From NCBI GenBank assembly GCA_946548085.1, contig CAMNPN010000001.1:5901-69900 (forward strand): 64,000 nt of DNA, given 5' to 3'. The stretch is from an uncultured Prevotella sp. (lineage in GTDB: Bacteria > Bacteroidota > Bacteroidia > Bacteroidales > Bacteroidaceae). The position numbers and the translations under genes are program-made. The notes beneath the pieces are model-generated. The model did not search any database, was not told the origin of the DNA, and worked only from the letters and a program-made list of their open reading frames with translations. Shown one piece after another: positions 8,750 through 26,800 of this stretch (position 1 is the first letter of the stretch; each line of letters starts with the position of its first letter).

Positions 8750-9997
8750 TCATGCTGCTCTCATAGGAATCGCCTTGTAGTAGGCTACGCAGCCTCGTTT
8801 GGTGTGCTCGAAACCCAGTTCCTTCATCGCCAGTCCGATATGCACCTTCGTACTGTGGTCGCTCTTCACGGACGGGTACTCACGCTGTATCACCTTCAGC
8901 ATCTCAGCACTGTTCAGGGCCTTCACACTCTCACCCTCTGCCGGCTTACGGAAACAGACTGCGATGATATCAGCCATATCCAACTGCGTCACATAGTTCT
9001 GATTCAGTTGCTGGATACGTTCCACCTCGTTGTTGTCAAACCAATAAGGTGTCTCTGCCACCTTCAGTTCATGTACCACCTGAGCATAGAGTTGTCCGTA
9101 GTCGATCTCGCCAGTATTGTCGATATACTGCCCCTGCGGGATGGTCAGACAGATGTATCGCCTGCTGCCCGTCGCATCCGTCAGCGGATGGAGATTGTTC
9201 GTCGTAGCCACAAACGAGGCATAGCGGGGGCGGTCTTCCTGCGAGGCACCATAGATGGGGCGACCATTTACCTTACTCTTCGAGAGTGTCTGCTTCAGTG
9301 CTGCATGCTGGCTGGGACGGATGGCCTCGAGTTCGTCGAGGTTCACGATTAGGTTGTTCGTCAGCGCCATCTCCTTGTCAAATTTGTTCGACAGGTTCAG
9401 ATGGTCGAGGAAATACTCTCGCAGTTCTGGCGGCAGCAGTCGCTTGAAGAAGGTGGTCTTGCCACAGCCCTGTGCCCCGATGAGCGTCGGCACGCACTCG
9501 TTACCGTGCAGCAGATCCATCTGCATCCAGTGGGCCACTGCCGACAGCAGCCATGTGGCTAAAAAGCCCTGCTGTTCTGTCGTGATGCCAGGCAGACGGC
9601 TGAAGAGACGAGCGATGTGATTCTGACCGTCCCACTTTGGCAGATTGCTGAGATAGTCGCCGATGGGATCGAAGGTTGGTACATCCTCGGAGTGTGCAAA
9701 CTCCGTGATCTCCGTCTTCGGGTTACCCTTCTCCAGCACCTGTTCCTTCTTGGCTCTGCGGATGATGGTGTTGAGGGCCTCCACAGTCAGAGTACGGAAT
9801 TTCAGATCAACTTCATTGAAGCCATCCGAGAGGCCTTCGGCAGCATCAGCCGACGAAGGCAAAGTTGCAAATTCTACCTTTCCGTTCAGGATGTTGCGGC
9901 GGAAGCGATAGTTCTCATTGAGGAACTGCTCGATGACGAGCGTTGCCTTCTGGCAGACTCCTGGAGTCTCGCCAGTAAAAGTCATTTTACTGTCCAT
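8750..9997 (-). CDS. VirE/VapE-family P-loop NTPase (primase-helicase-associated type)
   Basis: 415 aa with Walker A GAQGCGKTTFFKRLLP. Overall layout recalls Bacteroidales virulence-associated protein E proteins (from memory). The stop codon abuts the left repeat array. Confidence 0.75.
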   Translation of the reverse strand: MDSKMTFTGETPGVCQKATLVIEQFLNENYRFRRNILNGKVEFATLPSSADAAEGLSDGFNEVDLKFRTLTVEALNTIIRRAKKEQVLEKGNPKTEITEFAHSEDVPTFDPIGDYLSNLPKWDGQNHIARLFSRLPGITTEQQGFLATWLLSAVAHWMQMDLLHGNECVPTLIGAQGCGKTTFFKRLLPPELREYFLDHLNLSNKFDKEMALTNNLIVNLDELEAIRPSQHAALKQTLSKSKVNGRPIYGASQEDRPRYASFVATTNNLHPLTDATGSRRYICLTIPQGQYIDNTGEIDYGQLYAQVVHELKVAETPYWFDNNEVERIQQLNQNYVTQLDMADIIAVCFRKPAEGESVKALNSAEMLKVIQREYPSVKSDHSTKVHIGLAMKELGFEHTKRGCVAYYKAIPMRAA

Positions 9998-10439: not shown

Positions 10440-10976
10440 TTACCAACTCCAGATGCTGGTATTCGTATTGTTGCTGCGCTGCTCGGTGGTAGTATTTCCA
10501 AATGAATCTGTATAACTTGACGATGAACCTATAATCTGGCCATTGTTATTGCTATAGGTGGTCGTTGTATTTCCAAAACTATCTGTGTAGCTGTTTGATG
10601 ATCCTGTAAATCCACCATTGCCATTGGAATACGTTGTATGGGTATTCCCAAAACTGTCAGTATAGCTGTTTGAAGATCCGATGTAACCACCATTGGCATT
10701 TTGGTGTCTCGTTGTCGTGTTACCAAAGCAGTCCGTTGAGGTAGTAGAGGTACCAATAACACGACCATTTCGATCTCTGTGAGTGGTCGTCGTGTTACCA
10801 AAACTATCCGTATATGACGATGATGTACCCGTGATGCCCCCATTTGCATTCCGATGGGTGCTTGTGCTGTTTCCGAAACTGTCGGTATATCTTGAAGACG
10901 AACCAACGTTATAACCCTGTGCGTTTGCTGCGATGGCGAATGTGACAGCCATCAATGTCATCATTAACTTTTTCAT
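10440..10976 (-). CDS. Secreted repeat protein (6 x 25-aa G-S-S-S-Y-T-D-S-F-G-N-T-T-T repeats)
   Basis: 178 aa with signal peptide MKKLMMTLMAVTFAIAANAQ, followed by six tandem 25-residue units (75-bp DNA period). I recognise no family. Confidence 0.7.
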   Translation of the reverse strand: MKKLMMTLMAVTFAIAANAQGYNVGSSSRYTDSFGNSTSTHRNANGGITGTSSSYTDSFGNTTTTHRDRNGRVIGTSTTSTDCFGNTTTRHQNANGGYIGSSNSYTDSFGNTHTTYSNGNGGFTGSSNSYTDSFGNTTTTYSNNNGQIIGSSSSYTDSFGNTTTEQRSNNTNTSIWSW

Positions 10977-11065
10977 AATTCTAATGTTTAAATTGTTACT
11001 AATTTGTTGTTCTTTTGCCTCTTTATACCCAAAAAGTTCAAAAGGTAACCACTAAAACAAAAAAA

Positions 11066-11524
11066 TTATTTCTTTTTTTTCATTTCTTTCATTTTTGCCT
11101 TAAGGGCGTTGTAAGCAGTTGCTGCCTCTGGGCAATTGTCTTTCTTGCCTGTTTTATAATCATTTAAGGCCTCCTTGTAATAGCCTAAAGCCTCATAGGC
11201 TTCCCCTCGCGTAACAAATATGAGACCTATTGGCTCAATACTGATTGCTTGAGTGGCGTTTTCAATCACATCATACCAACGCTGAGCCTTATGGGCTTCC
11301 AATGCCCGAGAAGCATAAAACCTAAACATCTCTTGTCGCCTCGCGGCCATTTCCTGCTGTCTTGCTGCCGCTTCAGCCTGGGCCCTTATGGCCATGTTCA
11401 TTATGCCTGGGTCATAGAGATCCATCGTCGGCATTCTCACATAGTCATCGTAACCATAGATCTGTGCCTGTGCCGACATCATCACAAAACACATCATTGC
11501 TGTTGCCAAAAGTTCCTTCTTCAT
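11066..11524 (-). CDS. Small secreted TPR-like protein
   Basis: 152 aa with a signal peptide ending SAQAQ and one TPR-like motif (GEAYEALGYYKEALNDY). A TAACTTTG box at 11550-11557 (minus strand) lies 25 nt upstream of the ATG. Confidence 0.65.
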   Translation of the reverse strand: MKKELLATAMMCFVMMSAQAQIYGYDDYVRMPTMDLYDPGIMNMAIRAQAEAAARQQEMAARRQEMFRFYASRALEAHKAQRWYDVIENATQAISIEPIGLIFVTRGEAYEALGYYKEALNDYKTGKKDNCPEAATAYNALKAKMKEMKKKK

Positions 11525-11653
11525 AATCTACAAATTTTAAATAACTCCGCAAAGTTACGTCGATTTGGGCCTCAATCCAAGAAAAAACACAATAACAACC
11601 TTGTGAAATATATAATATGTGGTAAAAACATTCTCGCATTCAATATTTTTTTG

Positions 11654-11661
11654 TATCTTTG
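11654..11661 (+). promoter_or_regulatory. -7 promoter box TATCTTTG of the CHAT-AbiH-CHAT operon
   Basis: Exact TAnnTTTG match 27 nt upstream of the ATG at 11689. It overlaps the TTG start used by the ORF track at 11659. Confidence 0.6.
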
Positions 11662-11688
11662 CCCCAAGTGGAACTAAAAATTGAATAT

Positions 11689-14600
11689 ATGAGAAGACTT
11701 ATTTCTGTCCTATTGTGTGCTGTTTGCCATATAGTCGCTATGGCTCATGTTATTGAGAACCCCATTTTTGACATGACACATTCTCCGAACTTTCGAGTTA
11801 ACAAGATTATCATATCACCTGATACCACCTACTTGTTTTGTACATGCTTTATTAGTGGCACATGGGTAAATATTTCAAAATCAACATATATTGAAGATAT
11901 TGAGTCTATGAACAGATACAATATTATAAAATCCGAAGGTTTGCCTTTTGGTCCTGACAAGATTGAGGTTATAGGTGACTCTTTGATTAATGCGGTATTG
12001 TATTTCCCTCGAATTACAGGAAGCAAAGTTAATTTTATAGAGGATGAGAATTCATATGCATTCAATATCTATGGTATAAACATTAATGAATCATACAAGT
12101 CAACATATACCGATAGAGACATTGATGAATTCAGGGAGTTGGCAGTTAAAGAAGATACTTCTGGTAATTGGGATGCGTCAATAGATTATTCTTTAAAGCA
12201 ACTAGAAGCTTCTGACTATGTTTATGGAAAACGTTCTTTTCCAAGCGCATGGTCTATGTACAATTTAACAATGGAGTATGCTCAATTAGAAAATCAAGAA
12301 TTTGCTGCACGTAAAATGATAGAATGGGGAGAAAAAGCAATTGATATCCTAAACAATGTATCTGCCTACAATTTAAGATTAGATAGTATTAATTTAGACG
12401 TGTTAGCGAGAGCGTATGGAAATACAAGTACTGCATTTACACAACTTGGGCAAAGTGACTCAGCGTCATATTATATGGATAAATCTTTAGATATCAGGAG
12501 AAATTTAGGCAAAGTTAATGGCCTAGATTATGAAGAATATTTGATGCATATGGCAAGAAATTCGTTTTTTGAAGAGAAATACCCTCAAGCATATCTATAT
12601 GCAAAAGAAAGTTCAGATATTTATGAAAAGAAATATAACGAAAATCAGTTGTTTTATGGTTGCTTGTATCTTAATACTTTATCTTACTTGTGCAACTTTG
12701 CTGAAAAGATTGGTAAATATGAAGAGTCCATTAATTATGGGAATAAGGTGCTAGCTCTCTTAAATAGTAATGTATGTCCGGATAAAAAGAGCCAAGAAAT
12801 TTTATACGCATCTACTTGTACGGGGTTGGCTTGTGCATATTCTCAAATTGCCCAAAATGATAAATCTATCGAAATATTAGAAAGTTTTCTAGACACAAAA
12901 CAGGAGTATGGACGTATGTCTATTAGAATGCTATTAGCGGAACAATTGTTGAATTGTAGAAAAGACACGACAAAAGTTATTCAAGAATACAAATCAATAC
13001 TTAAAACTTTGGAAGATAGTATCAGTGTCGGAAAATATAATTATCCAGATTACTCAGAAATCCTCCATAAACTGGCTATTGTTTATATGAAGAAAGATAT
13101 AGATTCTACTATTCACTATTTTGATAAGTATATTGAAGTTCAGAAAAAGTGGAATGGCGAAGAGTCTATTGCATATGGCAATTCTCTTTTTGAGTATATT
13201 CAGTGGTTATCTCCTATTATTATATTAAAGAAGAGTCAAGAAATAGAAAAGGTACAATCATATTTATATCAATCAGCCAATATTATTAAACGCCATTTCA
13301 ATAATTCAATTCCTTTCCTTTCTAAAAGAGACAGAAAGAATTATTGGCAACACTATAAGTTCCTATTTACTGAGTGGATACCCATTATTAATAGAATACT
13401 GAAAACAGACATTTCTTATTCTATGGCTTATGATGCCGCTCTTTTTTATAAAGGAATGTTATTGTCTTCAGAATTGGAATTTAAGAATGTACTTTTATCA
13501 AGTGAAGATAAAACTTTAAAAGAATTGTATGAATCCTATTCACATAATCTTGCTTTAATTGAAAATCTGTATTCTACAAATAGCAATACATCTTTAGTGG
13601 ACTCTTTGAAGTCTGTAATAAGTAGTCAAGAATATCTTCTTTCTCAAAAGGTGTCTAGGTCCTACAGAGAATTCAAAGGTACTAATTTTTCATGGCAAGA
13701 TGTTAGAGGGAAGTTAAGCGATAAAGATGTTGCTATTGAAATAGTATCATATAAAACATTAGTTGATACTATTACTTATTATGATGCATATATCTTAAAA
13801 AAAGGTATATCTGCACCAATACTTATACCACTGTTTGAAGAGAATCAATTAAAAAATTACGTTTCTAATGGCAAAGTTGATTATATGGGCATATCCTCAT
13901 TATTATGGGCTAATGAGGATATGAAGGAAGTTTTAAAGGGAAAAAAGAATATCTATTTCTCAACTTCAGGATTACTAAATCAAATAGGGATAGAATATTT
14001 ACCAATATCTGATGAAAAATATATCTATGATATTTATAACTTGTATAGACTTTCATCTACAAGAGAGTTATGCATGATGGACGATATTCATAATATAGTG
14101 TGTGCATATATTTATGGTGGTCTAGATTATAATGCTTCTGTCGAGAATGATGGGAATGGAAATATCATTAATGATAGTAAAGTGGGTGTGTCTGTTATTA
14201 GGTCGTTAAAGCAAAGAGGGGGATTTGATTATCTTGCAGGTTCAAAAGATGAAATACTTAAGGTTTCTCAAGAATTACAGAATAACAATATAGATTGTAC
14301 TGTTTACACAGCAGAAAAGGGTACTGAGGAATCCATAAAGAAGTTATCAGGTAGTATTGTTAATGCACTTCATATATCAACTCATGGTATCTGCATTTCT
14401 ATAGATAATGATAGCGTATTTCAAAAAAACAATTTGCCGGTTCTGACGCCAGATGAAAATAAAGATATAGATGAAGAAGAAATGTCATTGTCAAGATCAT
14501 TCTTGGTAATGTCCGGAGGCAATTTGCTGATTCGTCGAGATAGTATACCTGAAGGTAAAGATGACGGGTTATTGACTGCGCTTGAGATCTCACATCTTGA

Positions 14601-14913
14601 TTTCCTTAATCTTGATCTTGTTGTGTTATCTGCATGTCAAACAGCCTTAGGCGATGTTGATTCAGAAGGGGTATATGGCCTTCAAAGAGGTTTTAAGAAA
14701 GCTGGCGCAAAAAGCATTCTGATGAGTTTGGATAACGTTGATGATGAAGCAACTCGAATACTTATGGTGGAGTTTTATCGCAATCTTATGAGTGGAAAGA
14801 CAAAGCATCAATCCCTCAAAGATGCCCAGAAGTATCTTCGTCAGGTTGAGAATGGGAAATATGACAAGCCTGAGTACTGGGCCTCGTTTATTATGTTGGA
14901 TGGTCTAAATTGA
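11689..14913 (+). CDS. Exported TPR-repeat CHAT-domain (caspase-fold) protease, long form
   Basis: 1074 aa from the ATG. Has signal peptide MRRLISVLLCAVCHIVAMA and long TPR-like helical repeats. The C-terminal CHAT domain carries His (NALHISTHG) and Cys (LVVLSACQTALG), and the conserved tail ends YWASFIMLDGLN. Confidence 0.85.
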   Translation: MRRLISVLLCAVCHIVAMAHVIENPIFDMTHSPNFRVNKIIISPDTTYLFCTCFISGTWVNISKSTYIEDIESMNRYNIIKSEGLPFGPDKIEVIGDSLINAVLYFPRITGSKVNFIEDENSYAFNIYGININESYKSTYTDRDIDEFRELAVKEDTSGNWDASIDYSLKQLEASDYVYGKRSFPSAWSMYNLTMEYAQLENQEFAARKMIEWGEKAIDILNNVSAYNLRLDSINLDVLARAYGNTSTAFTQLGQSDSASYYMDKSLDIRRNLGKVNGLDYEEYLMHMARNSFFEEKYPQAYLYAKESSDIYEKKYNENQLFYGCLYLNTLSYLCNFAEKIGKYEESINYGNKVLALLNSNVCPDKKSQEILYASTCTGLACAYSQIAQNDKSIEILESFLDTKQEYGRMSIRMLLAEQLLNCRKDTTKVIQEYKSILKTLEDSISVGKYNYPDYSEILHKLAIVYMKKDIDSTIHYFDKYIEVQKKWNGEESIAYGNSLFEYIQWLSPIIILKKSQEIEKVQSYLYQSANIIKRHFNNSIPFLSKRDRKNYWQHYKFLFTEWIPIINRILKTDISYSMAYDAALFYKGMLLSSELEFKNVLLSSEDKTLKELYESYSHNLALIENLYSTNSNTSLVDSLKSVISSQEYLLSQKVSRSYREFKGTNFSWQDVRGKLSDKDVAIEIVSYKTLVDTITYYDAYILKKGISAPILIPLFEENQLKNYVSNGKVDYMGISSLLWANEDMKEVLKGKKNIYFSTSGLLNQIGIEYLPISDEKYIYDIYNLYRLSSTRELCMMDDIHNIVCAYIYGGLDYNASVENDGNGNIINDSKVGVSVIRSLKQRGGFDYLAGSKDEILKVSQELQNNNIDCTVYTAEKGTEESIKKLSGSIVNALHISTHGICISIDNDSVFQKNNLPVLTPDENKDIDEEEMSLSRSFLVMSGGNLLIRRDSIPEGKDDGLLTALEISHLDFLNLDLVVLSACQTALGDVDSEGVYGLQRGFKKAGAKSILMSLDNVDDEATRILMVEFYRNLMSGKTKHQSLKDAQKYLRQVENGKYDKPEYWASFIMLDGLN

Positions 14914-14921
14914 AAGAGGCA

Positions 14922-15887
14922 ATGGCAAAGAATATATATTATATAGGGAATGGCTTCGACCTACATCACCTCATACAGAGCAGCTATAAGAACTACGCAG
15001 ATTGGTTAATGTGCTTTGACTATGGTTTATATTTAAAGGTCAATATGGTATATGGTGCTTTGGGCAGAGAAGATGAATGGTGGGGGGATTTTGAGAACCA
15101 TATTGGAGATTTGGATGTTGAAGCCTATTCTGCTTGGGTATATAGAAACTATGGCCCTGATTTTGGAAGTGATAGTTTTCGCGAGGCCGATCGTTATACT
15201 GCAGAAATGAAAGCAGAGGAGGAACTGAATGATCTGTATTATAAAATTAAACACTCGTTTTACAAATGGGTTCAGCAACTCCATTTAGCAAATGTATTAA
15301 GAAAGGTAGTATTAGATATAAGTGATTCTTATTTCATTTGCTTTAATTATACAGATACCCTGAGGAGACTTTATAAAATCCCCCAGGATAAGATTTGTTA
15401 TATACATGGTAATGCAAGGAAGGGAGATGAATTAGTTCTAGGCCATGGTAAAACAAAGGATCAGTTAATCGAACCTACGTTGATGCCACCTAACTTAACA
15501 GAAGAGCAGCAGCAAGAATGGATTGATGAGAATATAACGGATGACTCATTTCATAGGACTGTAGACGCTACTATAGATGCTGTTAGTAATCAAAGGAAGG
15601 AAGTGGAAAGAATAATATTTCATAATGATGAGGCATGGAATCAAATGACTCATGCACAAAATTTTTACATATACGGTCTTTCCTTCTCCTCAATAGATAC
15701 ACCTTATATAACCAAGGCTCTTTCTATGATGGATAAGAAAAACCTCTCCATTGTAGTAAATTATTATAATCAGAAAGACATAGAGAAAATAAAGGAATAC
15801 TTTCATCAGTTAGAGTTTCCTGAAGAGAAAATAACTATAGTACAATTGAAGGATCTTTTGGTGTACAAACACTTGTATAATCATTAA
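14922..15887 (+). CDS. AbiH-like (abortive infection AbiH family) protein
   Basis: 321 aa. N-terminal IYYIGNGFDLHHLIQSSYKNYADWL and the internal FNYTDTLRRLY...YIHG...LVLGHG blocks match my memory of the AbiH family. No signal peptide. The ATG is 8 nt after the upstream stop. Confidence 0.75.
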   Translation: MAKNIYYIGNGFDLHHLIQSSYKNYADWLMCFDYGLYLKVNMVYGALGREDEWWGDFENHIGDLDVEAYSAWVYRNYGPDFGSDSFREADRYTAEMKAEEELNDLYYKIKHSFYKWVQQLHLANVLRKVVLDISDSYFICFNYTDTLRRLYKIPQDKICYIHGNARKGDELVLGHGKTKDQLIEPTLMPPNLTEEQQQEWIDENITDDSFHRTVDATIDAVSNQRKEVERIIFHNDEAWNQMTHAQNFYIYGLSFSSIDTPYITKALSMMDKKNLSIVVNYYNQKDIEKIKEYFHQLEFPEEKITIVQLKDLLVYKHLYNH

Positions 15888-15894
15888 TAATGAT

Positions 15895-17559
15895 ATGAAA
15901 CGGCTGCTGTGGATATTATTAACTATAGGATTATTTGTTCATAAGGCAAATGGTCAGAAAAGTGAAGTTAGTATTGACAGAGCCATGTCTCTTTCAAGGA
16001 TGGCGGATTTCTATTATACTGCCCATAATTATGAGAAGGCAATAGAGCAAGAAAAGAAAGCACTTGACATGAAGAGTGTACTCTATGGTATACATAGTTT
16101 GGAATATGCAACGTCGGCATTCAATCTCGCCAAGTATTATTATGATCGAGGGATGGAGGGTGAAATTGAATGCAATCCATCAGACTTTATCTACGCAACA
16201 GAGTATGCGAAGAAGTCTATGGCCATTATAAAGGATACGGTCCTTTTTGAAATGAAAGGTTTGGATTATAATTCAAGGTATCAGTTGTGGCAGAACGTAA
16301 ATACTATTTTTGACAGCACCTTTCCGAGCTATGTGGCGAAGAATCCCAATGATTCTATTCTCTCTGATCTTTACAATATCATACTATTTTCAAAAGGAAT
16401 AACCTGGAGAAGAGACGGAGGCATAAATACAATGTGCTGGAAAGAAATACAGAACGCACTTGGTGAGAATGATATCGCTATCGAATTTATATCACCAGTA
16501 GTGCCATCTAATGATAATATGGTGTTCTATGCGTTGACGCTAAAAAAGGGATATAGATGTCCTAAGATGACAAGGCTTTTTGATATCTTTCAGTTTAAAG
16601 ATTCATTAAAATCTTGTAGTTCAAAAGTCGAAAAAGGCCAAAAGATCGGAAATATGGTTTGGAATCCTCTTAATAATGAACTCATTGGAATAGAGAATGT
16701 CTATTTCTCTGCAACGCATGTGCTGAATAATATGCCTATTGAGTATATGCCAATAACTGACACGGAAACCTACAGTGACAGATATTGCATGATAAGGGTT
16801 TCGTCTACTCAAGAAATTGCAAATAATAAAAAACGTAATCATTTTAACAAAGCTATCCTATTCGGAGGTTTGCAATATGAGGCTATAGAGGCGAAAGGTG
16901 AAGATAGAATGGAAAGAAGTGGATTTGAACCTTTACCAAATACAGGAGAAGAGGTCGCTGAGATTGCGAATGTATTTGAGAAAAGACATATCGACTACAA
17001 AGTTTATTCTGGTGATGAAGGGACGGAAGAATTATTTAAGTCTCTTTCCGGCAGTTCCGTTGATATCCTTCATTTAGCAACTCATGGTAAGTATATAGTC
17101 AATAACGACGTTGGGGTGTATCATAATGGTGATGAAGCTTTGACGAATTCGATACTTGTTTTTTCTGGGGTAAATAAACGATCTACATCTAGTTTTGAAC
17201 AAGATGATGGTATAGTAACAGCTCTCGATATATCGCAGATGGTCTTTGGTAATCTTGATCTCATTTCATTATCAGCCTGTGAGTCTGCTTTGGGTGAATA
17301 TGGGATAGATGACAGTATCATGGGTTTACAGCGTGGCTTTAAAATTGCTGGAGCTAATACCATTTTGATGAGTATAGACAAAGTTGATGATGAAGCAACA
17401 AGAATACTGATGGTAGAGTTCTATCGCAATCTTATGAGTGGAAAGACAAAGCATCAATCCCTCAAGGATGCCCAGAAGCATCTTCGCAAGGTTGAGAATG
17501 GGAAATATGACAAGCCCGAGTATTGGGCATCTTTTATTATGTTGGATGGGTTGAATTAA
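15895..17559 (+). CDS. Exported TPR-repeat CHAT-domain protease, short form
   Basis: 554 aa with signal peptide MKRLLWILLTIGLFVHKANG and N-terminal TPR-like repeats. CHAT His (DILHLATHG) and Cys (LISLSACESALG) are present. The last ~60 aa are nearly identical to the 11689-14913 product. Confidence 0.85.
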   Translation: MKRLLWILLTIGLFVHKANGQKSEVSIDRAMSLSRMADFYYTAHNYEKAIEQEKKALDMKSVLYGIHSLEYATSAFNLAKYYYDRGMEGEIECNPSDFIYATEYAKKSMAIIKDTVLFEMKGLDYNSRYQLWQNVNTIFDSTFPSYVAKNPNDSILSDLYNIILFSKGITWRRDGGINTMCWKEIQNALGENDIAIEFISPVVPSNDNMVFYALTLKKGYRCPKMTRLFDIFQFKDSLKSCSSKVEKGQKIGNMVWNPLNNELIGIENVYFSATHVLNNMPIEYMPITDTETYSDRYCMIRVSSTQEIANNKKRNHFNKAILFGGLQYEAIEAKGEDRMERSGFEPLPNTGEEVAEIANVFEKRHIDYKVYSGDEGTEELFKSLSGSSVDILHLATHGKYIVNNDVGVYHNGDEALTNSILVFSGVNKRSTSSFEQDDGIVTALDISQMVFGNLDLISLSACESALGEYGIDDSIMGLQRGFKIAGANTILMSIDKVDDEATRILMVEFYRNLMSGKTKHQSLKDAQKHLRKVENGKYDKPEYWASFIMLDGLN

Positions 17560-17560
17560 T

Positions 17561-17586
17561 ATTGGAGAGGGAATTCCCTCTCCAAT
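17561..17586. terminator. Perfect 26-nt palindrome, bidirectional terminator candidate
   Basis: attggagagggaattccctctccaat starts 2 nt after the CHAT stop. It lies between convergent ORFs and has no long T run. Confidence 0.55.
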
Positions 17587-17590
17587 AACG

Positions 17591-17737
17591 CTACCACACA
17601 TAAGGTCTATCAAGGATTTTTGTGTTTCCGCACTTGGGGCACTTAAACTCTGTTAGTTGACGAACTACACCATTTCGGATTTCTGTTCTTGTCCTCATCT
17701 CGACCATCTGGCTTTTACAAAAGAAACAATTTTCCAT
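17591..17737 (-). CDS. Small zinc-ribbon protein (YgiT/MqsA-N-terminal-like CxxC...CxxC), candidate
   Basis: 48-aa ORF below the track cutoff: MENCFFCKSQMVEMRTRTEIRNGVVRQLTEFKCPKCGNTKILDRPYVW. A TACCTTTG box lies at 17851-17858 (minus strand) upstream. Convergent with the CHAT gene. Confidence 0.4.
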   Translation of the reverse strand: MENCFFCKSQMVEMRTRTEIRNGVVRQLTEFKCPKCGNTKILDRPYVW

Positions 17738-18145: not shown

Positions 18146-18346
18146 GGTGACAAAGGAGCAGAATCTTCATTCTTATCATTATCAGGAGGACCAATAGATA
18201 TACTTCATTTAGCTACTCATGCAAGTATATCAGCAGTAGTATGGGGTTGCAAAGATGCCCAAAAGTATCTTCGTCAGATTGAAGATGGGAAATATGACAA
18301 ACCAGAGTATTGGGCCTCATTTATCATGTTGGATGGATTGAACTAA
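18146..18346 (+). pseudogene. Internally deleted remnant of a third CHAT protease gene
   Basis: The frame reads GDKGAESSFLSLSGGPIDILHLATHAS...KDAQKYLRQIEDGKYDKPEYWASFIMLDGLN*. It retains the His box and the C-terminal tail but lacks the roughly 110-aa segment with the catalytic Cys. It has no start codon; an in-frame TGA lies at 18122-18124. Confidence 0.75.
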
Positions 18347-18348
18347 AA

Positions 18349-18370
18349 GAGGGCGCATTAATGCGCCCTC
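18349..18370. terminator. Perfect 22-nt palindrome after the CHAT remnant
   Basis: gagggcgcattaatgcgccctc sits 3 nt after the remnant stop, in the same position as the 17561-17586 palindrome relative to the LDGLN stop. Confidence 0.5.
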
Positions 18371-18678: not shown

Positions 18679-19200
18679 TTATGTAGATTTCTCTGGAGGG
18701 TCAAACAGGAATGAAATGGTCTCGTTGAATTCCTCTATGACCTGAGGCAGATTCGGGTTATCCCTTTTTGATATAATGGCGATGAAATTCATGATTCCGT
18801 CCATCTTGCCCTCAGCAGTTTTCATGATAAATAATTCACGTCTTTCGTAGATGTTAAACCAACGCACGAAGAGTCTGTTTCGGAATGCTTGCTTGCGGTC
18901 GCCTGTCTCTGCCAAATAAAGCATGGTATCGTCACCGTTTACATCAAAGAACTCTTCGATGATGGCAAAAATGGTAAGTCGTAATTTGCTGTCATGAGGT
19001 GAACGCTCATGGTGTCTGTTGGTAATACCAAACTCGTAGGCTCCACTGGGGATAATGGCCTCATTTATTGTGAAGTCGATGTCGAACCTGACACCACTAT
19101 CACTGACAAAGTAGAAATTGTTATGTCTCACAGGATCCTGCATCACCTTATAAGGAGCATGCAGATTGATGTTCTCCAATCTGAGTGTGTTCATAGTCAA
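18679..19200 (-). CDS. Hypothetical protein (173 aa)
   Basis: Clean ORF on the same strand, 26 nt downstream of the 45-aa ORF. I recognise no motif. Confidence 0.6.
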   Translation of the reverse strand: MTMNTLRLENINLHAPYKVMQDPVRHNNFYFVSDSGVRFDIDFTINEAIIPSGAYEFGITNRHHERSPHDSKLRLTIFAIIEEFFDVNGDDTMLYLAETGDRKQAFRNRLFVRWFNIYERRELFIMKTAEGKMDGIMNFIAIISKRDNPNLPQVIEEFNETISFLFDPPEKST

Positions 19201-19458: not shown

Positions 19459-20121
19459 TCATTTCCTCAACTTATTAAGTATTTCCAGAGCCTTGACAGC
19501 AATGGGTGTATCAGGATTATCTTCTGCCAATTTCTTTAGAACAGGAATAGCCTTATTTGTCTGATCGTTCTTAATATAGGCAAGGGCCAGATTAATGGCA
19601 ATGTCGTTGGCATAAGCGGAATAGGTGAAGTCTGAGTCCATATTGGAATAAATGGTTTCCAATTCTGCTATGATGGTACTGACGTTGCGCTGTTCCTTTA
19701 TATTATTAAATAAGGTGTAGAGGTGGGCGACGGTAACAGAATCTAAATCACCGCGTGAATAATCATCCATGCTATACTCAGAATAATAGGGTGATACAAG
19801 TGCGGAGAGTTCATTAAATCGCTTGTCTTTCTGATAGCCGAAGAAGATGGCAATGACGGCAGCGATAGAGCAGGCCCATGCAACAAGCGTGCGTAGTCTT
19901 TCTTTGGTGTTGTTGCTGATAAGTGTCTTTTCCTTAGCAGCCTCCTGTGAGCGTATGCTTTTAATCAGAGATACGGTAGCCAACACTTGGGCACGCAGTT
20001 CTGGGTCTGCCTTGATCTCTTGCTTAAAGGCTTGTTCTTCAACCTCTGTCATGGCACCACGTATGAAAGCATCGATTCTTTCTTCGATGGCCTGCTGTTG
20101 TATATCGTTGTACTTATCCAT
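19459..20121 (-). CDS. Membrane anti-sigma-like protein with extracytoplasmic TPR-like domain
   Basis: 220 aa. N-terminal FIRGAMTEVEEQAFKQEIKADPEL is an anti-sigma-type helix, followed by a single TM helix (LVAWACSIAAVIAIFFGY) and a C-terminal TPR-like tail. The ATG overlaps the sigma gene stop by 8 nt. Confidence 0.6.
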   Translation of the reverse strand: MDKYNDIQQQAIEERIDAFIRGAMTEVEEQAFKQEIKADPELRAQVLATVSLIKSIRSQEAAKEKTLISNNTKERLRTLVAWACSIAAVIAIFFGYQKDKRFNELSALVSPYYSEYSMDDYSRGDLDSVTVAHLYTLFNNIKEQRNVSTIIAELETIYSNMDSDFTYSAYANDIAINLALAYIKNDQTNKAIPVLKKLAEDNPDTPIAVKALEILNKLRK

Positions 20122-20698
20122 AGATCTTATTCTTTAGTTCGTTATACTTGTCGCGGAACTTCTTCACGCACTTATATTTCTGGGCCTTAACGGAGTTGGC
20201 ATCAGAGAAGTTGAACATATCTGCAATGGTTGATGTCGAGAAGTCATCCCAGTAGTAACTATGAAGAATATTCTTGCAGGTGTCTGTCATCGAGGCGATG
20301 ATATTGTTCACCAGCAGTTCCATACGGGTTTTCCTTTCTTCTTCCTCCGCATCTATACAAGCGCCATAGAGTTCTGCTATCTTGTCATCACGTACAAAGT
20401 CGGAGTTGGTGAGTCTTCTATCGTCAAAGAAAGGTTTCGTCTTGCTGTCCTTTCCCAGGAACTTTAGGGTCTGGTTAATGCAGACTCTCATGAAATAGGT
20501 TCCTAACGAACTTGTCAGAGTAGACAACTTCCCGTCACGGACATTCAGGAAAAGAGCCATTGATGACTCCTGGAAGATATCATCAAGGTCATCATCTGAG
20601 ACATAGAACTGTTTCCGTAGATATGACAATACCCTTCCTCTCTCATCAGAAAGGAAGCGGTTCAAATCCTGGTTCTGCAATGATATCTCCTTTGCCAT
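20114..20698 (-). CDS. ECF-type sigma-70 family RNA polymerase sigma factor
   Basis: 194 aa. Region 2-like DDLDDIFQESSMALFLNV...YFMRVCINQ and region 4-like CKNILHSYYWDDFSTSTIADMFNFSDANSVKAQKYKCVKKFR. Confidence 0.8.
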   Translation of the reverse strand: MAKEISLQNQDLNRFLSDERGRVLSYLRKQFYVSDDDLDDIFQESSMALFLNVRDGKLSTLTSSLGTYFMRVCINQTLKFLGKDSKTKPFFDDRRLTNSDFVRDDKIAELYGACIDAEEEERKTRMELLVNNIIASMTDTCKNILHSYYWDDFSTSTIADMFNFSDANSVKAQKYKCVKKFRDKYNELKNKIYG

Positions 20699-20699
20699 A

Positions 20700-21569
20700 T
20701 TAGAAACTCGTTTCTGTTACCATGTTCTGATTATTGGGCCAATGGCCATTCTTCATAATGGAAGCCTTGACTCCATTCAAGAATTCCTCGGCATTGGTGG
20801 ATAAGGGTCTTGTTTGCAATGCCTGAGCGATGTTGTAAGACAGCGGGCCATAGCGCTTATCTGCCACCATTATCTCCATATTCACCTGATCCGGGCGACA
20901 GGCTTCAAGATACAGGACATGAGACTGTTTGGCTGATGGCTCAATCTTGTAATGGGACTTCTTGTCAGCAGAAGGCTTGAACACCTTGTTATGATAGGTA
21001 AAGCCGACCTTGGTACCTCTGACTGTTTCGTCATTGGCGCGTGAGGATGTGCCGGCATGGCAGGCATCAATCACCACATAGAGGAATCCCGTAGGACCTA
21101 TCTTGTCGCGTAACTTTTTGACGTATGTGTTCAGCTGATCATCCAGAAGATGCTTTTTCCCTTCATAGACGCCTTTCTTATAGAGTTTATAGGCATCGAT
21201 GGGGATGATGGCTTCATCCCAGCCATCTTCTTCATCACCATTCAAGTCTTCTACAGGCTGGCCGTGTGCTGAGAAGTGGAGATAGACGATATCACCTTTT
21301 TTCGTCTTGTCTGCGAACTGAGATAGTTGGGTGATAATATTTTCGAAAGTGGCCTGTTCATCCAAGAGAGAGGTGATAGCAAATCCTTGCTTTTTCAGGA
21401 TGGGAGTTAAAAGATTCACGTCTTCAGTACCATTGATATTATTCCACTGGTAGCCAGTCAATGCCGTGTCATAATGAGAGATGCCCACCATGAAAGCCCT
21501 TTTCCGTTGTGGAAATGCAACAGACGAAATACAGCATAACAGACTTAATATCAGCAGTTTCCAATTCAT
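20700..21569 (-). CDS. Exported caspase-family (peptidase C14) protease
   Basis: 289 aa from the ATG at 21569, with signal peptide MNWKLLILSLLCCISSVAF. The catalytic dyad blocks are YLHFSAHGQ and VVIDACHAGTS. Its stop codon is 1 nt from the sigma ATG. Confidence 0.85.
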   Translation of the reverse strand: MNWKLLILSLLCCISSVAFPQRKRAFMVGISHYDTALTGYQWNNINGTEDVNLLTPILKKQGFAITSLLDEQATFENIITQLSQFADKTKKGDIVYLHFSAHGQPVEDLNGDEEDGWDEAIIPIDAYKLYKKGVYEGKKHLLDDQLNTYVKKLRDKIGPTGFLYVVIDACHAGTSSRANDETVRGTKVGFTYHNKVFKPSADKKSHYKIEPSAKQSHVLYLEACRPDQVNMEIMVADKRYGPLSYNIAQALQTRPLSTNAEEFLNGVKASIMKNGHWPNNQNMVTETSF

Positions 21570-21587: not shown

Positions 21588-21595
21588 CAAATATA
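21588..21595 (-). promoter_or_regulatory. -7 promoter box TATATTTG of the caspase-sigma-anti-sigma operon
   Basis: Plus-strand caaatata is the reverse complement of TATATTTG, 18 nt upstream of the ATG at 21569. The track start at 21590 is the TTG inside this box. Confidence 0.6.
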
Positions 21596-21690
21596 CAAAA
21601 ATATTTCGAAATAGCGGTTACCTTTTTGTTTTTTTCAGTATAAAGAGGCAAATAAACAACAAATTAGTAACAATTTAAACATCAAACAAA

Positions 21691-22230
21691 ATGAAAAAAG
21701 TATTTTATCACATCACGAGAGTGTTTTCTAAGTGCTGGTTTATCATCCTCCTTGCTTGCACGATTTCGCCAATCGTAGCCTTAGGTGTCCTCATCCTCTT
21801 TACCATTATCTCAATGGTATTTTTCAAGGATCCTGATGATGCCAAGAACCCTGATGATTATTTCACAGATGAGGAAATGAAGAGATTGGAGTCCGGCGAG
21901 GACATGAATGACGAGGAGTTTCTGACGCTGGTGGCTAAATGTCAGACCTTCAACTGCCCGAAGAAAGTCGATCCTGTAACGACCTGGACGAGTTCTGAAT
22001 TGACCAAGGACGCATACATCTATAACTATGAGATTAACGACAAAAAACACATGTATCGTCTCTTGGATATGAATGACCTGAAGAATCAGATCCTGTCAAG
22101 GATTGACAAACAAAACGATAAGATTCAGCGCATTATTGCTACTAATAGAAATCTTGTGTTCCGTTACAGGAATTATCAGAAGAACACCATAGAAGATGTT
22201 GTTCTGACAACAAACGAGCTTAGGAGTTAA
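21691..22230 (+). CDS. Hypothetical membrane-anchored protein (179 aa)
   Basis: N-terminal hydrophobic stretch WFIILLACTISPIVALGVLILFTIISMVFF followed by a soluble domain. It is divergent from the caspase operon. Confidence 0.6.
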   Translation: MKKVFYHITRVFSKCWFIILLACTISPIVALGVLILFTIISMVFFKDPDDAKNPDDYFTDEEMKRLESGEDMNDEEFLTLVAKCQTFNCPKKVDPVTTWTSSELTKDAYIYNYEINDKKHMYRLLDMNDLKNQILSRIDKQNDKIQRIIATNRNLVFRYRNYQKNTIEDVVLTTNELRS

Positions 22231-22269
22231 GATTAGAAACATGTATAACCCTATAAAAACAGAAATAAT

Positions 22270-22836
22270 ATGGCACTATTAAGTTTGTTCGGCGCAAAGC
22301 CAAAGGAAAAGGTAGAGATGGTTCCTGTCATTCCAGAGAATTCTACCGAGCAAGATGCTGAGGACGTAAAGAACTCAGAGGAAGACAACGAAGAAGAGAA
22401 AAAGCATCTGATCACCATCACCTGGGGAACGGGAATGCCCATAGACGTCATTTTCAACTACATTCATAAGAACTTCGAGGAAGAAGGATTCCAGGATGCG
22501 TTGGTTAATTCAGACATTACTTATCGCGATGCCAAAGAGAAAATTATCCGTAACGACCTGGAGATGCTTTTCAAACGTATTATCCTCTGCTACAAGAAGA
22601 ATATCCGTGAGATAGATGTCCAGATTAACAATGCCCGTCAGGCATACGCCCTTTCTGCTGCATCAAGCCTGGAAGCCCGGCGTACCACCTATGAAGAGCA
22701 TCTTACAGAGATTGATGAGATGCGTGAACAGTTTGAGTCAGACGATCCTAAAATGATGACCATGATAGAGTCATATCGCAGGGGATTTCTCAAAGGAATC
22801 ACAGCAGTATCACTTAAGTTTATTAATCACGAATAA
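22270..22836 (+). CDS. Hypothetical protein (188 aa), acidic N-terminus plus helical C-terminus
   Basis: Clean ORF 39 nt after the previous gene. No recognised motif. Confidence 0.6.
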   Translation: MALLSLFGAKPKEKVEMVPVIPENSTEQDAEDVKNSEEDNEEEKKHLITITWGTGMPIDVIFNYIHKNFEEEGFQDALVNSDITYRDAKEKIIRNDLEMLFKRIILCYKKNIREIDVQINNARQAYALSAASSLEARRTTYEEHLTEIDEMREQFESDDPKMMTMIESYRRGFLKGITAVSLKFINHE

Positions 22837-22848
22837 GAATTATCAGTT

Positions 22849-23838
22849 ATGAAAACTTTAAATAATATTGGATGTGCCCTGATTGGATGGGACAAGAATA
22901 TCTTGAAAGAATGTGGTGAGGCAAGTCACCGCCAGTTTAGAAAACTGATCTCTGCCATTTGTATCATGATGATACTCTGGGGAACCATCGGCTACTGTTT
23001 TGCCGACAGATACATAAATATTGAATCATTAGTATTGAAGATTTGTATTGCCTTGATGTTCATGCTCATTGTCTTATGCGTAGAACGAGTGATCATTCTA
23101 ACGGTTGGCAAAGCGCGCCTTATGACTGTGATGAGAGTTATGCTTGCTTTATGTATGGCTTTTCTGGGAGCTTGTATCTTTGACCAAATTATCTTCCAAA
23201 ATGATATTCAGCAGACAATACACGATCGCCGTGAGGACGTAATTCAGGAAACTACAGCAAAACGTCTGATGGTCTTTAATAGTGATATACAAAGGATTAC
23301 TCATGATTTGGATTCGTTGAGCAAATCTACAATTACTTTGGGTGAAGAATTGGCGAAACATCCTACTATAAAGAGCGTTAACGTATCAACAATAGAACAG
23401 GCCATAGGAGTTGATGAGAATGGTAATCCAAAGAAAGTGAGAAATCGTTCTACAGAGATTGTGAATATTCCTAATCCTCTGACTGGACAGCTAAATGCAA
23501 ATAACGAACAGATTCAGTTATATCAAAATCAGTTAGAGCAGCTTCGTCAGGACAAAAAAGAGATTGCTGGAAAGGTGACAGATGAAATACACTCTCGTCC
23601 TGTTGGATTTATTGAGGAATTGGAAGCGACTCTGAAGGTTGTGTCGAACAGCTGGATATCATTGGTATTTTATATAGTTCTCTTCTGCTTCCTGACATTT
23701 CTGGAACTGTTCGTTCTAACAATCAAAATGGGCGAAAGTAAGTGTGACTATGATTTGATAGTGGAGAACCAGTTGAAACTGAAAAAGAACCTCATGGATC
23801 AGACTGCACAGAGTATGATGGTGAATATAGCAGTTTAG
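22849..23838 (+). CDS. Membrane protein with long central coiled coil (DUF4407-like architecture)
   Basis: 329 aa with three N-terminal TM helices, a heptad-rich segment of about 140 aa (LNANNEQIQLYQNQLEQLRQDKKEIAGK) and a C-terminal TM helix (WISLVFYIVLFCFLTFLELFVLTI). The family name is from memory and uncertain. Confidence 0.6.
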   Translation: MKTLNNIGCALIGWDKNILKECGEASHRQFRKLISAICIMMILWGTIGYCFADRYINIESLVLKICIALMFMLIVLCVERVIILTVGKARLMTVMRVMLALCMAFLGACIFDQIIFQNDIQQTIHDRREDVIQETTAKRLMVFNSDIQRITHDLDSLSKSTITLGEELAKHPTIKSVNVSTIEQAIGVDENGNPKKVRNRSTEIVNIPNPLTGQLNANNEQIQLYQNQLEQLRQDKKEIAGKVTDEIHSRPVGFIEELEATLKVVSNSWISLVFYIVLFCFLTFLELFVLTIKMGESKCDYDLIVENQLKLKKNLMDQTAQSMMVNIAV

Positions 23839-23864
23839 TATTAACACTTTAAATATAAACGTTT

Positions 23865-24131
23865 ATGGAAACAAGAGACGACTTATTTAGTGATGTCATC
23901 GAAGAGATGTTTGAAGAACTACCCATTGAAGTTAAAATGGATATGGATGAGGAAGATTTGGAAGATCTAGTCGATGAAGATAATGATTGGGAAGAATCTG
24001 ATAATTACGAGTGTGGTGGTTATCTGTGGACAGAGGAAGATTCCTGGGATGCACTTACGGATGGAATGTATGGTGAAATGCCCAATAGCCCTTGGGAATA
24101 TGATGCGATGATGGATGCTATGGGATTCTAA
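23865..24131 (+). CDS. Extremely acidic small protein (88 aa)
   Basis: By my count 33 Asp/Glu against 2 Lys/Arg. It has aromatic-acidic motifs (DNDWEESDNYE, SPWEYDAMMD). Confidence 0.6.
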   Translation: METRDDLFSDVIEEMFEELPIEVKMDMDEEDLEDLVDEDNDWEESDNYECGGYLWTEEDSWDALTDGMYGEMPNSPWEYDAMMDAMGF

Positions 24132-24144
24132 TAAAGTTTAGACT

Positions 24145-24717
24145 ATGGATAAGGAATTAAAAGTAATGATCTCAAAAGAAATGGAGCAGTTCCATTGCTC
24201 CATTCTTTTAGACGAAGTGAAAGAAAAAGTACGTAAGTTGAAAGCGTATGGTGTGGAGGAAGCAGATATTGTAGCTGCCATGAATGAGGAAGAACTATTC
24301 CCTCAGTTGGTGGTGACAGAAGATTACAAGGTTGTTTTGGCAGGAGAAAAGTCCATAGAGGTAGAGATGGAGCCCCTGATAAAGGCTATATATTTGTTGT
24401 TCTTGTCCCATCCAGAGGGGATTGTGCTCAAATGTCTTCCAGATTATCGTAAAGAACTAACTAGTATCTATCTGCTTCTACGTCCATATGGACTTACTGA
24501 CAGAGTAGAAAATAGTATTGAAAGCGTGACCAATCCTATGCAGAACTCAATCAATGAGAAGTGTGCCAGGATTCGGAAACTGTTCTCATCGCTGCTCCCC
24601 AAGAGTGTTGCCAAATATTATGCCATTTCTGGTAAGCGTGGCGAAGCCAAGAAGATAGATCTTGTTCGGGCCAATGTCGTCTGGAAATGCAAATTGCCTA
24701 ATTCGCAAGGCTTGTGA
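24145..24717 (+). CDS. Uncharacterised protein, paralog of the FtsZ-coupled gene at 28117-28701
   Basis: 190 aa. Shares the blocks VVTEDYKVVL, IYLLFLSHPEGI, NSINEKCARIRKLF and VVWK with the 28117-28701 product. Confidence 0.65.
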   Translation: MDKELKVMISKEMEQFHCSILLDEVKEKVRKLKAYGVEEADIVAAMNEEELFPQLVVTEDYKVVLAGEKSIEVEMEPLIKAIYLLFLSHPEGIVLKCLPDYRKELTSIYLLLRPYGLTDRVENSIESVTNPMQNSINEKCARIRKLFSSLLPKSVAKYYAISGKRGEAKKIDLVRANVVWKCKLPNSQGL

Positions 24718-24782: not shown

Positions 24783-25211
24783 ATGACAGACTACGAGTAC
24801 ATTATTACACAATTGAAGAAGTGTCATTTCTCTGGATGGGATGACAAAGTGATGAGGGATTGTATTGACAGGTTGCCTAACTTGTCGCGTCAGGAATTGA
24901 CAGCGCTCTATTTAGGTAAATGGGTGAAGGAGTATGCTGTGTTTAAGGAGGCTATCTTCAACATTATGTTTGCTGATAAGATAGGACTGCGAGAAGAGCG
25001 TATCAGGAATCTTGATACGGAGGCGCTGATTGCGGAGTTTAAGGATAAGAAAGGTGGAAATGTGTCACTTTGCAGGGAAGAACTGAAGGCTCGCTATGAG
25101 GCTGGGCGTGATGTGGATCTGATAGCTGAGGCTTTTACTGCTTCGAACAAGAAAGACCAGCAGTGGATTATCAAACAGGAGAAGAAATCAAAGGATGGGG
25201 ACAAGAAGTGA
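24783..25211 (+). CDS. Hypothetical protein (142 aa) overlapping the dnaB start
   Basis: MTDYEYIITQLKK... start chosen because of the promoter box. The 3' end overlaps the dnaB ATG by 17 nt. Confidence 0.55.
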   Translation: MTDYEYIITQLKKCHFSGWDDKVMRDCIDRLPNLSRQELTALYLGKWVKEYAVFKEAIFNIMFADKIGLREERIRNLDTEALIAEFKDKKGGNVSLCREELKARYEAGRDVDLIAEAFTASNKKDQQWIIKQEKKSKDGDKK

Positions 25212-26706: not shown

Positions 26707-26768
26707 AAATAGAAGTGGGAATTTCACCGCAAGCCTTGTGAAGATTTGGGTATGTGGGAAAAGTTTAC

Positions 26769-26776
26769 TAACTTTG
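26769..26776 (+). promoter_or_regulatory. -7 promoter box TAACTTTG ahead of the ftsZ homolog
   Basis: Exact TAnnTTTG match 24 nt upstream of the ATG at 26801. Confidence 0.55.
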
Positions 26777-26800
26777 CAAACGATTTAATGCAAAGTGAAT

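Follow-up and report, generated by a model that had tools for sequence, protein, structure and literature searches.

An AbiH-family gene lies between two exported TPR-CHAT proteases beside a caspase/sigma/anti-sigma operon in an uncultured Prevotella

The CHAT1-AbiH-CHAT2 operon described here is located in a 64,000-nucleotide (nt) stretch of DNA from an uncultured Prevotella sp. (GenBank assembly GCA_946548085.1, contig CAMNPN010000001.1, positions 5,901 to 69,900 of the forward strand), hereafter called the window. It encodes an AbiH-family protein between two TPR-CHAT proteases and lies 2 kb away from a second operon, which codes for an exported C14 caspase, a sigma factor of the extracytoplasmic function (ECF) type and an anti-sigma-like protein. 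We propose that the CHAT proteins are the variable arm of an envelope signalling module and that AbiH is an autonomous, promoter-less cargo effector, a two-layer reading whose chances we judge to be about even. The module appears conserved in rumen Prevotella-type bacteria and Bacteroidales, and by analogy the locus looks like a split version of the DdvA/DdvS system of Myxococcus. This module, rather than AbiH, holds the main interest, and its combination of components was not found described in the literature.

In the first layer, the exported TPR-CHAT proteases, possibly together with the caspase, would sense a periplasmic cue in analogy to DdvA/DdvS. They would then cut the anti-sigma protein on the outer side, and intramembrane proteolysis would release the sigma factor. 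In the second layer, AbiH would be a cytoplasmic, SIR2-like and probably NAD+-consuming abortive-infection effector, inserted as a promoter-less cassette a few nt behind the conserved 3' end of CHAT1 and presumably transcribed together with the CHAT genes from a promoter of the housekeeping type. Most likely it acts alone, as standalone AbiH does, and would not be cleaved by the proteases.

Linkage of the CHAT genes to the caspase/sigma operon

The caspase/sigma operon runs on the minus strand. The caspase (20700-21569) possesses a signal peptide and a His/Cys dyad, and is followed by the ECF-type sigma-70 family factor (20114-20698), which matches TIGR02937 of NCBIfam with an E-value of 4.7e-13 and 49.1 bits against a cut-off of 42.9. 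The anti-sigma-like protein of 220 amino acids (aa) (19459-20121) has a predicted cytoplasmic N-terminal part of about 75 aa, one transmembrane segment at about aa 75-95 and a periplasmic TPR tail. A sigma-anchored metagenome scan yielded 80 loci, mostly from rumen samples (single loci are given below by numbers such as L008). The 42 loci that extend 3 kb or more past the anti-sigma gene were taken as informative: in 41 of them a TPR-CHAT gene lies no more than 3.5 kb from that gene, with one to three CHAT genes each, whereas AbiH is present in only 4 of the 42. The linkage of CHAT genes to the sigma operon persists through changes of gene order, down to 31-34% sigma identity. The initial annotation had suggested that the trio might feed the caspase/sigma operon; that the two belong together is borne out by this linkage and by the five-gene clusters described below. 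Viral contigs scanned with the sigma profile gave no relatives, and thus there is no sign of a phage-borne module.

Overall organization of the operon

CHAT1 (11689-14913, plus strand as for the whole operon) encodes a protein of 1074 aa in which a signal peptide is followed by a beta-rich domain (..ENPIFD..) at the N-terminus, by TPR repeats and by a CHAT domain with the His and Cys residues (Pfam CHAT 3.7e-46 plus TPR_12). It is followed after 8 nt by the putatively SIR2-like AbiH-family gene (14922-15887), the candidate cargo, which encodes 321 aa, is predicted to be cytoplasmic and is matched by the AbiH models of both Pfam and PADLOC. After another 7 nt comes CHAT2 (15895-17559), which encodes a short exported TPR-CHAT protease of 554 aa with a separase/craspase/DdvA-type fold (Pfam CHAT 1.9e-49 plus TPR_12). 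A -7 promoter box of the Bacteroidota type, TATCTTTG (11654-11661, +), is located 27 nt before the ATG at 11689. Immediately past the CHAT2 stop codon, a perfect palindrome of 28 nt (17560-17587, +) forms a terminator-like hairpin of -20.5 kcal/mol (z = -6.8). Equivalent hairpins of differing sequence are found immediately 3' of the terminal CHAT genes in L109, L142 and L146, which supports the terminator reading of the palindrome. The operon structure is thus as first annotated in its promoter box of the TAnnTTTG type, its two gaps, its TPR-CHAT, AbiH and TPR-CHAT domain calls, now backed by profile searches including one for AbiH, and its closing palindrome, which spans 28 nt rather than 17561-17586.

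TAnnTTTG is the consensus of Bacteroides promoters. The window contains 57 copies against 27.6 expected, an excess that fits a Bacteroidota genome. A scan for E. coli-type promoters and terminators was uninformative, with 46 promoter-like sites against 42 expected.

Catalytic residues, export and fold of the CHAT proteases

Both CHAT proteins retain the His and Cys motifs noticed initially (ALHISTHG/LSACQTA in CHAT1 and ILHLATHG/LSACESA in CHAT2), in a domain preceded by TPR repeats. Judged from alignment columns, as a motif regular expression gave false 'missing' results, both residues are conserved without exception in 48 of 48 related CHAT C-domains and in 44 of 44 caspases. The structure model of CHAT2, with a predicted local distance difference test score (pLDDT) of 86.7, matches Csx29 (7.5e-13), DdvA (1.5e-10) and separase; the DdvA structures matched are 8rw5 and 8rot, with E-values of about 1e-10. 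Searches of PDB sequences with AbiH, CHAT1, CHAT2 and the sigma profile returned nothing significant, and only the comparison of folds was informative. Neither CHAT1 nor CHAT2 matched any PADLOC model, and so there was no match to Borvo, a CHAT defence system of a single gene; gasdermin matches were also absent among the neighbouring genes. In many long CHAT proteins, a conserved beta-rich domain, ..(V/I)ENP(V/I)FD(R)TD.., forms the mature N-terminus directly behind the signal peptide; it is seen at 11750-12100 of the window and in L092, L137, L144, L149 and L153. The short CHAT2-type proteins of about 555 aa constitute a separate, well-populated subfamily.

A signal-like hydrophobic region is present at the N-terminus of CHAT1 and CHAT2 and absent from AbiH, in agreement with the annotated export of the two proteases. 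Such a peptide, usually ending in ..A/S-Q, was found in all of the about 45 CHAT homologues with a complete open reading frame (ORF) and a usable ATG; all caspases have a signal-like peptide as well. In the six lineages checked, the topology is the same throughout: signal peptides on CHAT proteins and caspase, one transmembrane segment in the anti-sigma protein, and neither in the sigma factor nor in AbiH. The arrangement pointed out at the outset as odd, with proteases outside and AbiH inside, is therefore conserved across all lineages examined. It bears directly on a protease-gated Abi system, the other possibility raised in the annotation, in which CHAT1 or CHAT2 would cleave or bind AbiH and switch it on, comparable to caspase-like/gasdermin pairs or Craspase and Csx30. 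The tight coupling of the three genes by gaps of 8 and 7 nt speaks for such gating, as does the control of effectors by CHAT proteases that is known from other defence systems. However, the proteases and AbiH are predicted on opposite sides of the membrane, and AbiH carries no pro-domain or extension relative to its family. Direct gating was rejected on this predicted topology, and we regard it as highly improbable.

AbiH is a putative SIR2-like protein that probably acts alone

AbiH matches Pfam PF14253 over the whole model (positions 1-260 of 260) with an E-value of 2.7e-46 and 159.2 bits against a cut-off of 30.9, and the PADLOC AbiH model with 6e-18. No extra or adaptor domain was found in it. 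The motifs GNGFD, FNYTDTL, YIHG and LGHG are present, and the alignment of 56 homologues reveals invariant residues at Gly9-Asp13, Asn142, His162 and Gly174-His175. The GNGFD loop, Asn142 and His162 would fit the Asn/His chemistry of SIR2 enzymes. The AlphaFold model built on the same 56 homologues has a pLDDT of 94.7. Its top 23 PDB matches are all SIR2 proteins (SIR2-HerA, CobB, ThsA), with probabilities up to 0.99, but with weak E-values of about 2e-3 and template modelling (TM) scores of 0.3-0.4. AbiH is regarded as SIR2-like in the literature, where NAD+ depletion has been proposed (PMC13064643; bioRxiv 10.1101/2024.09.18.613514). The description of AbiH as a determinant of unknown mechanism is thus partly outdated, since the literature now regards it as SIR2-like, in agreement with the fold search.

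AbiH of Lactococcus acts alone, according to Prevots 1996 as cited in PMC13064643. The window protein shares with lactococcal AbiH and PF14253 the full-length family match, the GNGFD/FNYTD/HG motifs and the SIR2-like predicted fold, although its identity to characterised members is low. It differs from the lactococcal single-gene determinant in genetic context, being promoter-less and 8 nt behind a protease gene; throughout the window clade, AbiH lies 6-9 nt behind a CHAT gene. It can be compared with the SIR2-based effectors ThsA, DSR1/2 and SIR2-HerA/Nezha through its fold matches to SIR2-HerA, CobB and ThsA, and sister loci hold a genuine SIR2_2/ThsA-like gene in the AbiH slot. In contrast to those effectors, it has no HerA, TIR, SLOG or pAgo partner, and the structural match is weak (TM score about 0.38).

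A census of AbiH homologues in species-representative genomes gave 80 loci among the matches listed, 77 of which have no CHAT neighbour. Two of these CHAT-less loci were checked (L004 and L005), and there AbiH is surrounded by DUF4365, PLD, AbiEii and primase-like genes, that is, by defence or mobile-element genes. In the three loci with a CHAT neighbour, the five genes form one co-directional cluster, ordered caspase-sigma-anti-sigma-CHAT-AbiH in L008 and sigma-anti-sigma-AbiH-CHAT-caspase in L025 (Prevotella sp. MA2016) and L026; the two orders represent two distant Bacteroidales genomes. In relatives of 75%, 68% and 44% identity, AbiH starts 6-7 nt behind a TPR-CHAT gene and a second CHAT gene is lacking; this pair converges on a caspase/sigma/membrane-protein operon just as in the window. 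The identical AbiH protein occurs on three contigs, each with the same trio. The trio as a conserved unit was rejected, being found solely in such near-identical contigs, and the 'fixed three-gene arrangement' described initially fails: CHAT2 is missing from the AbiH-bearing P0008, P0014 and P0015, most modules have no AbiH, and other cargo occupies the slot.

Cassette exchange at the conserved CHAT 3' end

The last part of CHAT1 (14689-14911, +) and that of CHAT2 (17335-17557, +) are two copies of a conserved 3' end, the recombination anchor common to CHAT paralogues. They are 87% identical over about 220 nt, compared with 42% for the proteins otherwise. A third, orphan 3' end remnant follows at 18250-18370 (+), which is 86% identical over 103 nt and has its own GC hairpin (18349-18370). 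Some loci match the window with 92% identity in their flanks, and within the CHAT region their DNA similarity to it is limited to the last 250-350 nt or so of each CHAT gene. Identity is 37% between CHAT proteins in equivalent positions, whereas it is 72-89% between the products of neighbouring genes. Judged from these alignments, the CHAT genes are exchanged as cassettes, with the conserved 3' end as their anchor.

Elsewhere, the slot behind or between CHAT genes is occupied by a SIR2_2/ThsA-like gene, a DUF3800 gene (PADLOC PDC-S51, 7.7e-100), an uncharacterised 571-aa gene or a PLD nuclease. Downstream cargo (AbiH, SIR2_2, DUF3800/PDC-S51 or the 571-aa gene) starts 3-9 nt past the CHAT stop codon. 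In L093, the junction ctaaatTGAaagaggcaATGg between CHAT and an uncharacterised gene is the same as the CHAT1-AbiH junction of the window through the ATG, and yet the downstream genes are unrelated. CHAT-cargo-CHAT sandwiches were found with three cargo families: AbiH in the window, SIR2_2 in L133 and DUF3800 in L129. DUF2971/PDC-S31, PIN, AbiE (AbiEi/Eii), GNAT and NUDIX genes also occur nearby in the region. In many loci, the variable CHAT region is bounded on its far side by two small exported proteins, rep178 and TPR152 (10440-11524, minus strand in the window). The former (10440-10976) is made of Ser/Thr/Gly/Asn-rich repeats (..SSYTDSFGNTTTT..), and the latter (11066-11524) is a TPR protein of 152 aa.

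Such a mosaic might also be explained without any role in defence signalling, if the CHAT proteins and caspase were diversifying secreted proteases, involved in surface remodelling, nutrition or inter-bacterial competition, and the region were a recombination hot spot that collects defence genes. The hypervariability of the CHAT proteins, their exchange as cassettes, the accumulation of toxin-antitoxin modules (PIN, AbiEi/Eii), GNAT and NUDIX genes and the small exported repeat proteins at the border all suit this explanation. Nevertheless, it would leave unexplained the near-obligate linkage to sigma and anti-sigma genes (41/42), kept down to 31-34% sigma identity, the dedicated promoter motif common to both operons in seven loci, and the presence of the anti-sigma protein DdvA among the closest structural relatives. 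We consider it unlikely.

Promoters of the caspase and CHAT operons

The caspase/sigma/anti-sigma operon is preceded by the promoter cassette GGTAACC-N19-TATATTTG (21588-21622, -), the sole such site in the window. Across loci, the conserved cassette of the caspase operon reads CTCTTTATAC..AAAGGTAACC-N19-TTGTATATTTGC; it was obtained from an intergenic alignment anchored on the caspase KRAFxVGIS motif, which replaced one spoiled by two outlier loci. GGTAAC occupies the position expected for the Bacteroidota -33 element. The spaced motif GGTAAC-N18-23-TAnnTTTG was found at 47 sites in 764 kb of sigma-anchored loci. Of these, 40 stand in front of caspase operons, 6 in front of first CHAT genes, 1 in front of a SIR2_2 gene heading a CHAT operon and none elsewhere. 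The chance expectation of GGTAAC-TAnnTTTG in the 64-kb window is 0.01. Seven loci (L100, L107, L109, L111, L112, L144 and L165) have CHAT/cargo operons with CTCTTTATAC..AAAGGTAACC-N19-TAnnTTTG. The distribution of the motif argues for a two-operon regulon in the loci that share it, and promoters of the GGTAAC type would be controlled by the ECF sigma factor.

In the window, the GGTAAC element is absent at -33 of the CHAT1 promoter. The readable AbiH-bearing operons (window, L084, L089 and L092) and the PLD-headed operon of L149 likewise have no GGTAAC promoter, only the ordinary TAnnTTTG. Therefore, sigma control of the window AbiH is not supported. The element AACAACCTTGTGAAA (about 11594-11608, +) precedes the -7 box by some 50 nt; it is conserved before first CHAT genes in many loci with either promoter type.

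These promoter data are central to the idea of an integrated system, in which AbiH, and SIR2_2, DUF3800 or PLD in sister loci, would act in the cytoplasm as the module's output effector: sensing in the periplasm by CHAT proteins and caspase would free the ECF sigma factor, transcription of CHAT and cargo genes would rise, and NAD+ would be depleted. It draws on the confinement of all 47 motif sites to caspase, CHAT or SIR2_2-headed CHAT operons, on the sandwiches with three cargo families, on the five-gene clusters that include AbiH in two gene orders (in L025, AbiH lies between anti-sigma and CHAT), on the clade of CHAT-linked AbiH proteins described next, and on the defence island controlled by DdvS. 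Set against it are the missing GGTAAC promoter at CHAT1 and the other AbiH-bearing operons examined, the absence of recognisable defence cargo from about half of the roughly 28 module architectures tallied by hand, the lack of an adaptor domain in AbiH and the independent action of AbiH in Lactococcus. On balance, this integrated system seems rather improbable to us.

Weighing the two-layer reading

Several points weigh against treating AbiH as mere cargo of a signalling module. The SIR2_2 cargo gene of L100 lies directly behind a promoter of the sigma-operon type. AbiH recurs alongside the module in three gene orders, which hints at more than hitch-hiking, and in a neighbour-joining tree calculated with no bootstrap the CHAT-linked AbiH proteins from L008 and from the window clade fall into a single clade. 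On the signalling side, the anti-sigma assignment comes from weak hidden Markov model (HMM) matches plus topology, the export calls from an N-terminal hydrophobicity heuristic rather than from SignalP, and the metagenome loci mostly from related rumen organisms, which are not independent. Even in the case of DdvA, it is unproven that a CHAT protease cleaves an anti-sigma protein (DdvA paper). A regulatory link between AbiH and the module is possible, and the gene orders and the tree do not establish it for the window. We still prefer the two-layer reading, with AbiH as autonomous cargo beside variable CHAT sensors.

Comparison with known systems

DdvA/DdvS of Myxococcus, in which the anti-sigma factor contains a periplasmic TPR-CHAT part and the ECF sigma factor controls a defence island (DdvA paper), is the closest described system. 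Its authors found DdvA-like proteins solely in Myxococcota and one Comamonas. The window locus resembles it in several respects: an ECF sigma factor encoded beside a single-pass anti-sigma protein (TIGR02937 above the cut-off, anti-sigma HMM matches weak), TPR-CHAT on the periplasmic side with His and Cys, defence genes at the locus and the fold match of CHAT2. However, CHAT is not fused to the anti-sigma protein in the window, and one to three separate, exported and hypervariable genes take its place in the module. The sigma operon additionally includes the exported C14 caspase, and the anti-sigma protein has no CHCC zinc site, with zero Cys or His in its first 75 residues. The module is found in Bacteroidota, with defence genes embedded in the CHAT operon itself. 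With respect to a DdvS-like regulon, the sigma-operon motif precedes CHAT/cargo operons in the seven sister loci and not in the window.

Type III-E Craspase (Cas7-11 with the TPR-CHAT protein Csx29, which cleaves Csx30 bound to an RpoE-type sigma factor) likewise sets a protease of the caspase type upstream of a sigma factor, a logic to which the window module can be likened, and Csx29 is the best structural match of CHAT2. A scan of neighbours within about 10 kb revealed neither Cas7-11 nor any other cas gene. The window proteases are exported, whereas Csx29 is cytoplasmic and RNA-guided. In CalpL-CalpT-CalpS and in EACC2-caspase systems, a protease acts with an ECF sigma factor in conflict systems. 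EACC2-caspase systems are coupled to an ECF sigma factor together with a protein of the TPR type (Kaur et al. 2021, PMC8195603). The theme of protease plus ECF sigma factor is common to the window and these two, but they differ in protease architecture, are cytoplasmic and have no exported CHAT array or cargo slot. No publication that brings CHAT, anti-sigma, SIR2 and caspase together emerged from literature searches, and neither Kaur 2020 nor the ECF reclassification paper includes the module.

Neighbouring genes

Just past the CHAT2 terminator, a 48-aa zinc-ribbon ORF is located at 17591-17737 (-); the same position holds an Ogr/Delta-like 46-aa gene in L173 and small ORFs in L084. A DUF6169 gene (18679-19200, -), with no PADLOC match, recurs in the variable region beside the anti-sigma or CHAT gene (L084, L094, L108 and L165). 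At the left edge, after the housekeeping genes purA and hisS and a GDSL-lipase gene, lies a VapE-like, DUF3874 primase-type gene (8750-9997, -). The varying positions of VapE in L107 and L144 suggest mobile-element traffic.

Divergent from the caspase operon are the conserved neighbours p179, p188, DUF4407 and p190 (21691-24717, +), whose membership in the module is not implied. The product of p190 (24145-24717), which has no Pfam match, is 43% identical to the C-terminal half of a 364-aa protein encoded directly before a CHAT-less AbiH gene in a Paludibacteraceae metagenome-assembled genome (L018, 8878-10903). Further downstream, a DnaB-type helicase (503 aa) stands beside an FtsZ-family protein (441 aa, GTG start) at 25195-28120, with no ftsA. 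The pair stays syntenic with the module in many loci, FtsZ being 89% identical in L084, and this FtsZ may be the housekeeping one or a paralogue.

Implications

For annotation, a protease-gated system should not be inferred from AbiH beside proteases. The idea that phage defence is turned on when a CHAT protease of the periplasm initiates anti-sigma proteolysis is so far based on DdvA alone, a single polypeptide that unites the protease with its presumed substrate and whose trigger is unknown (PMC11506125). In the window module, protease, second protease and anti-sigma are separate proteins, so that cleavage can be tested directly in vitro and genetically.

A further, tentative proposal, in which our confidence is low, is an outside-in immune pathway in rumen Bacteroidales. 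Hypervariable periplasmic CHAT sensors and the C14 caspase would cut the anti-sigma protein, and the sigma factor would drive a two-operon regulon with interchangeable abortive-infection effectors (AbiH, SIR2, DUF3800 or PLD) in its second operon, sensor and effector cassettes being swapped at the CHAT 3' end. Such a pathway would amount to DdvA/DdvS in a split and modular form. The diversity of the CHAT cassettes may reflect sensor targets. For the mobility of defence genes in Bacteroidales, the locus points to a route in which promoter-less cargo would be fused a few nt behind a conserved 3' gene end.

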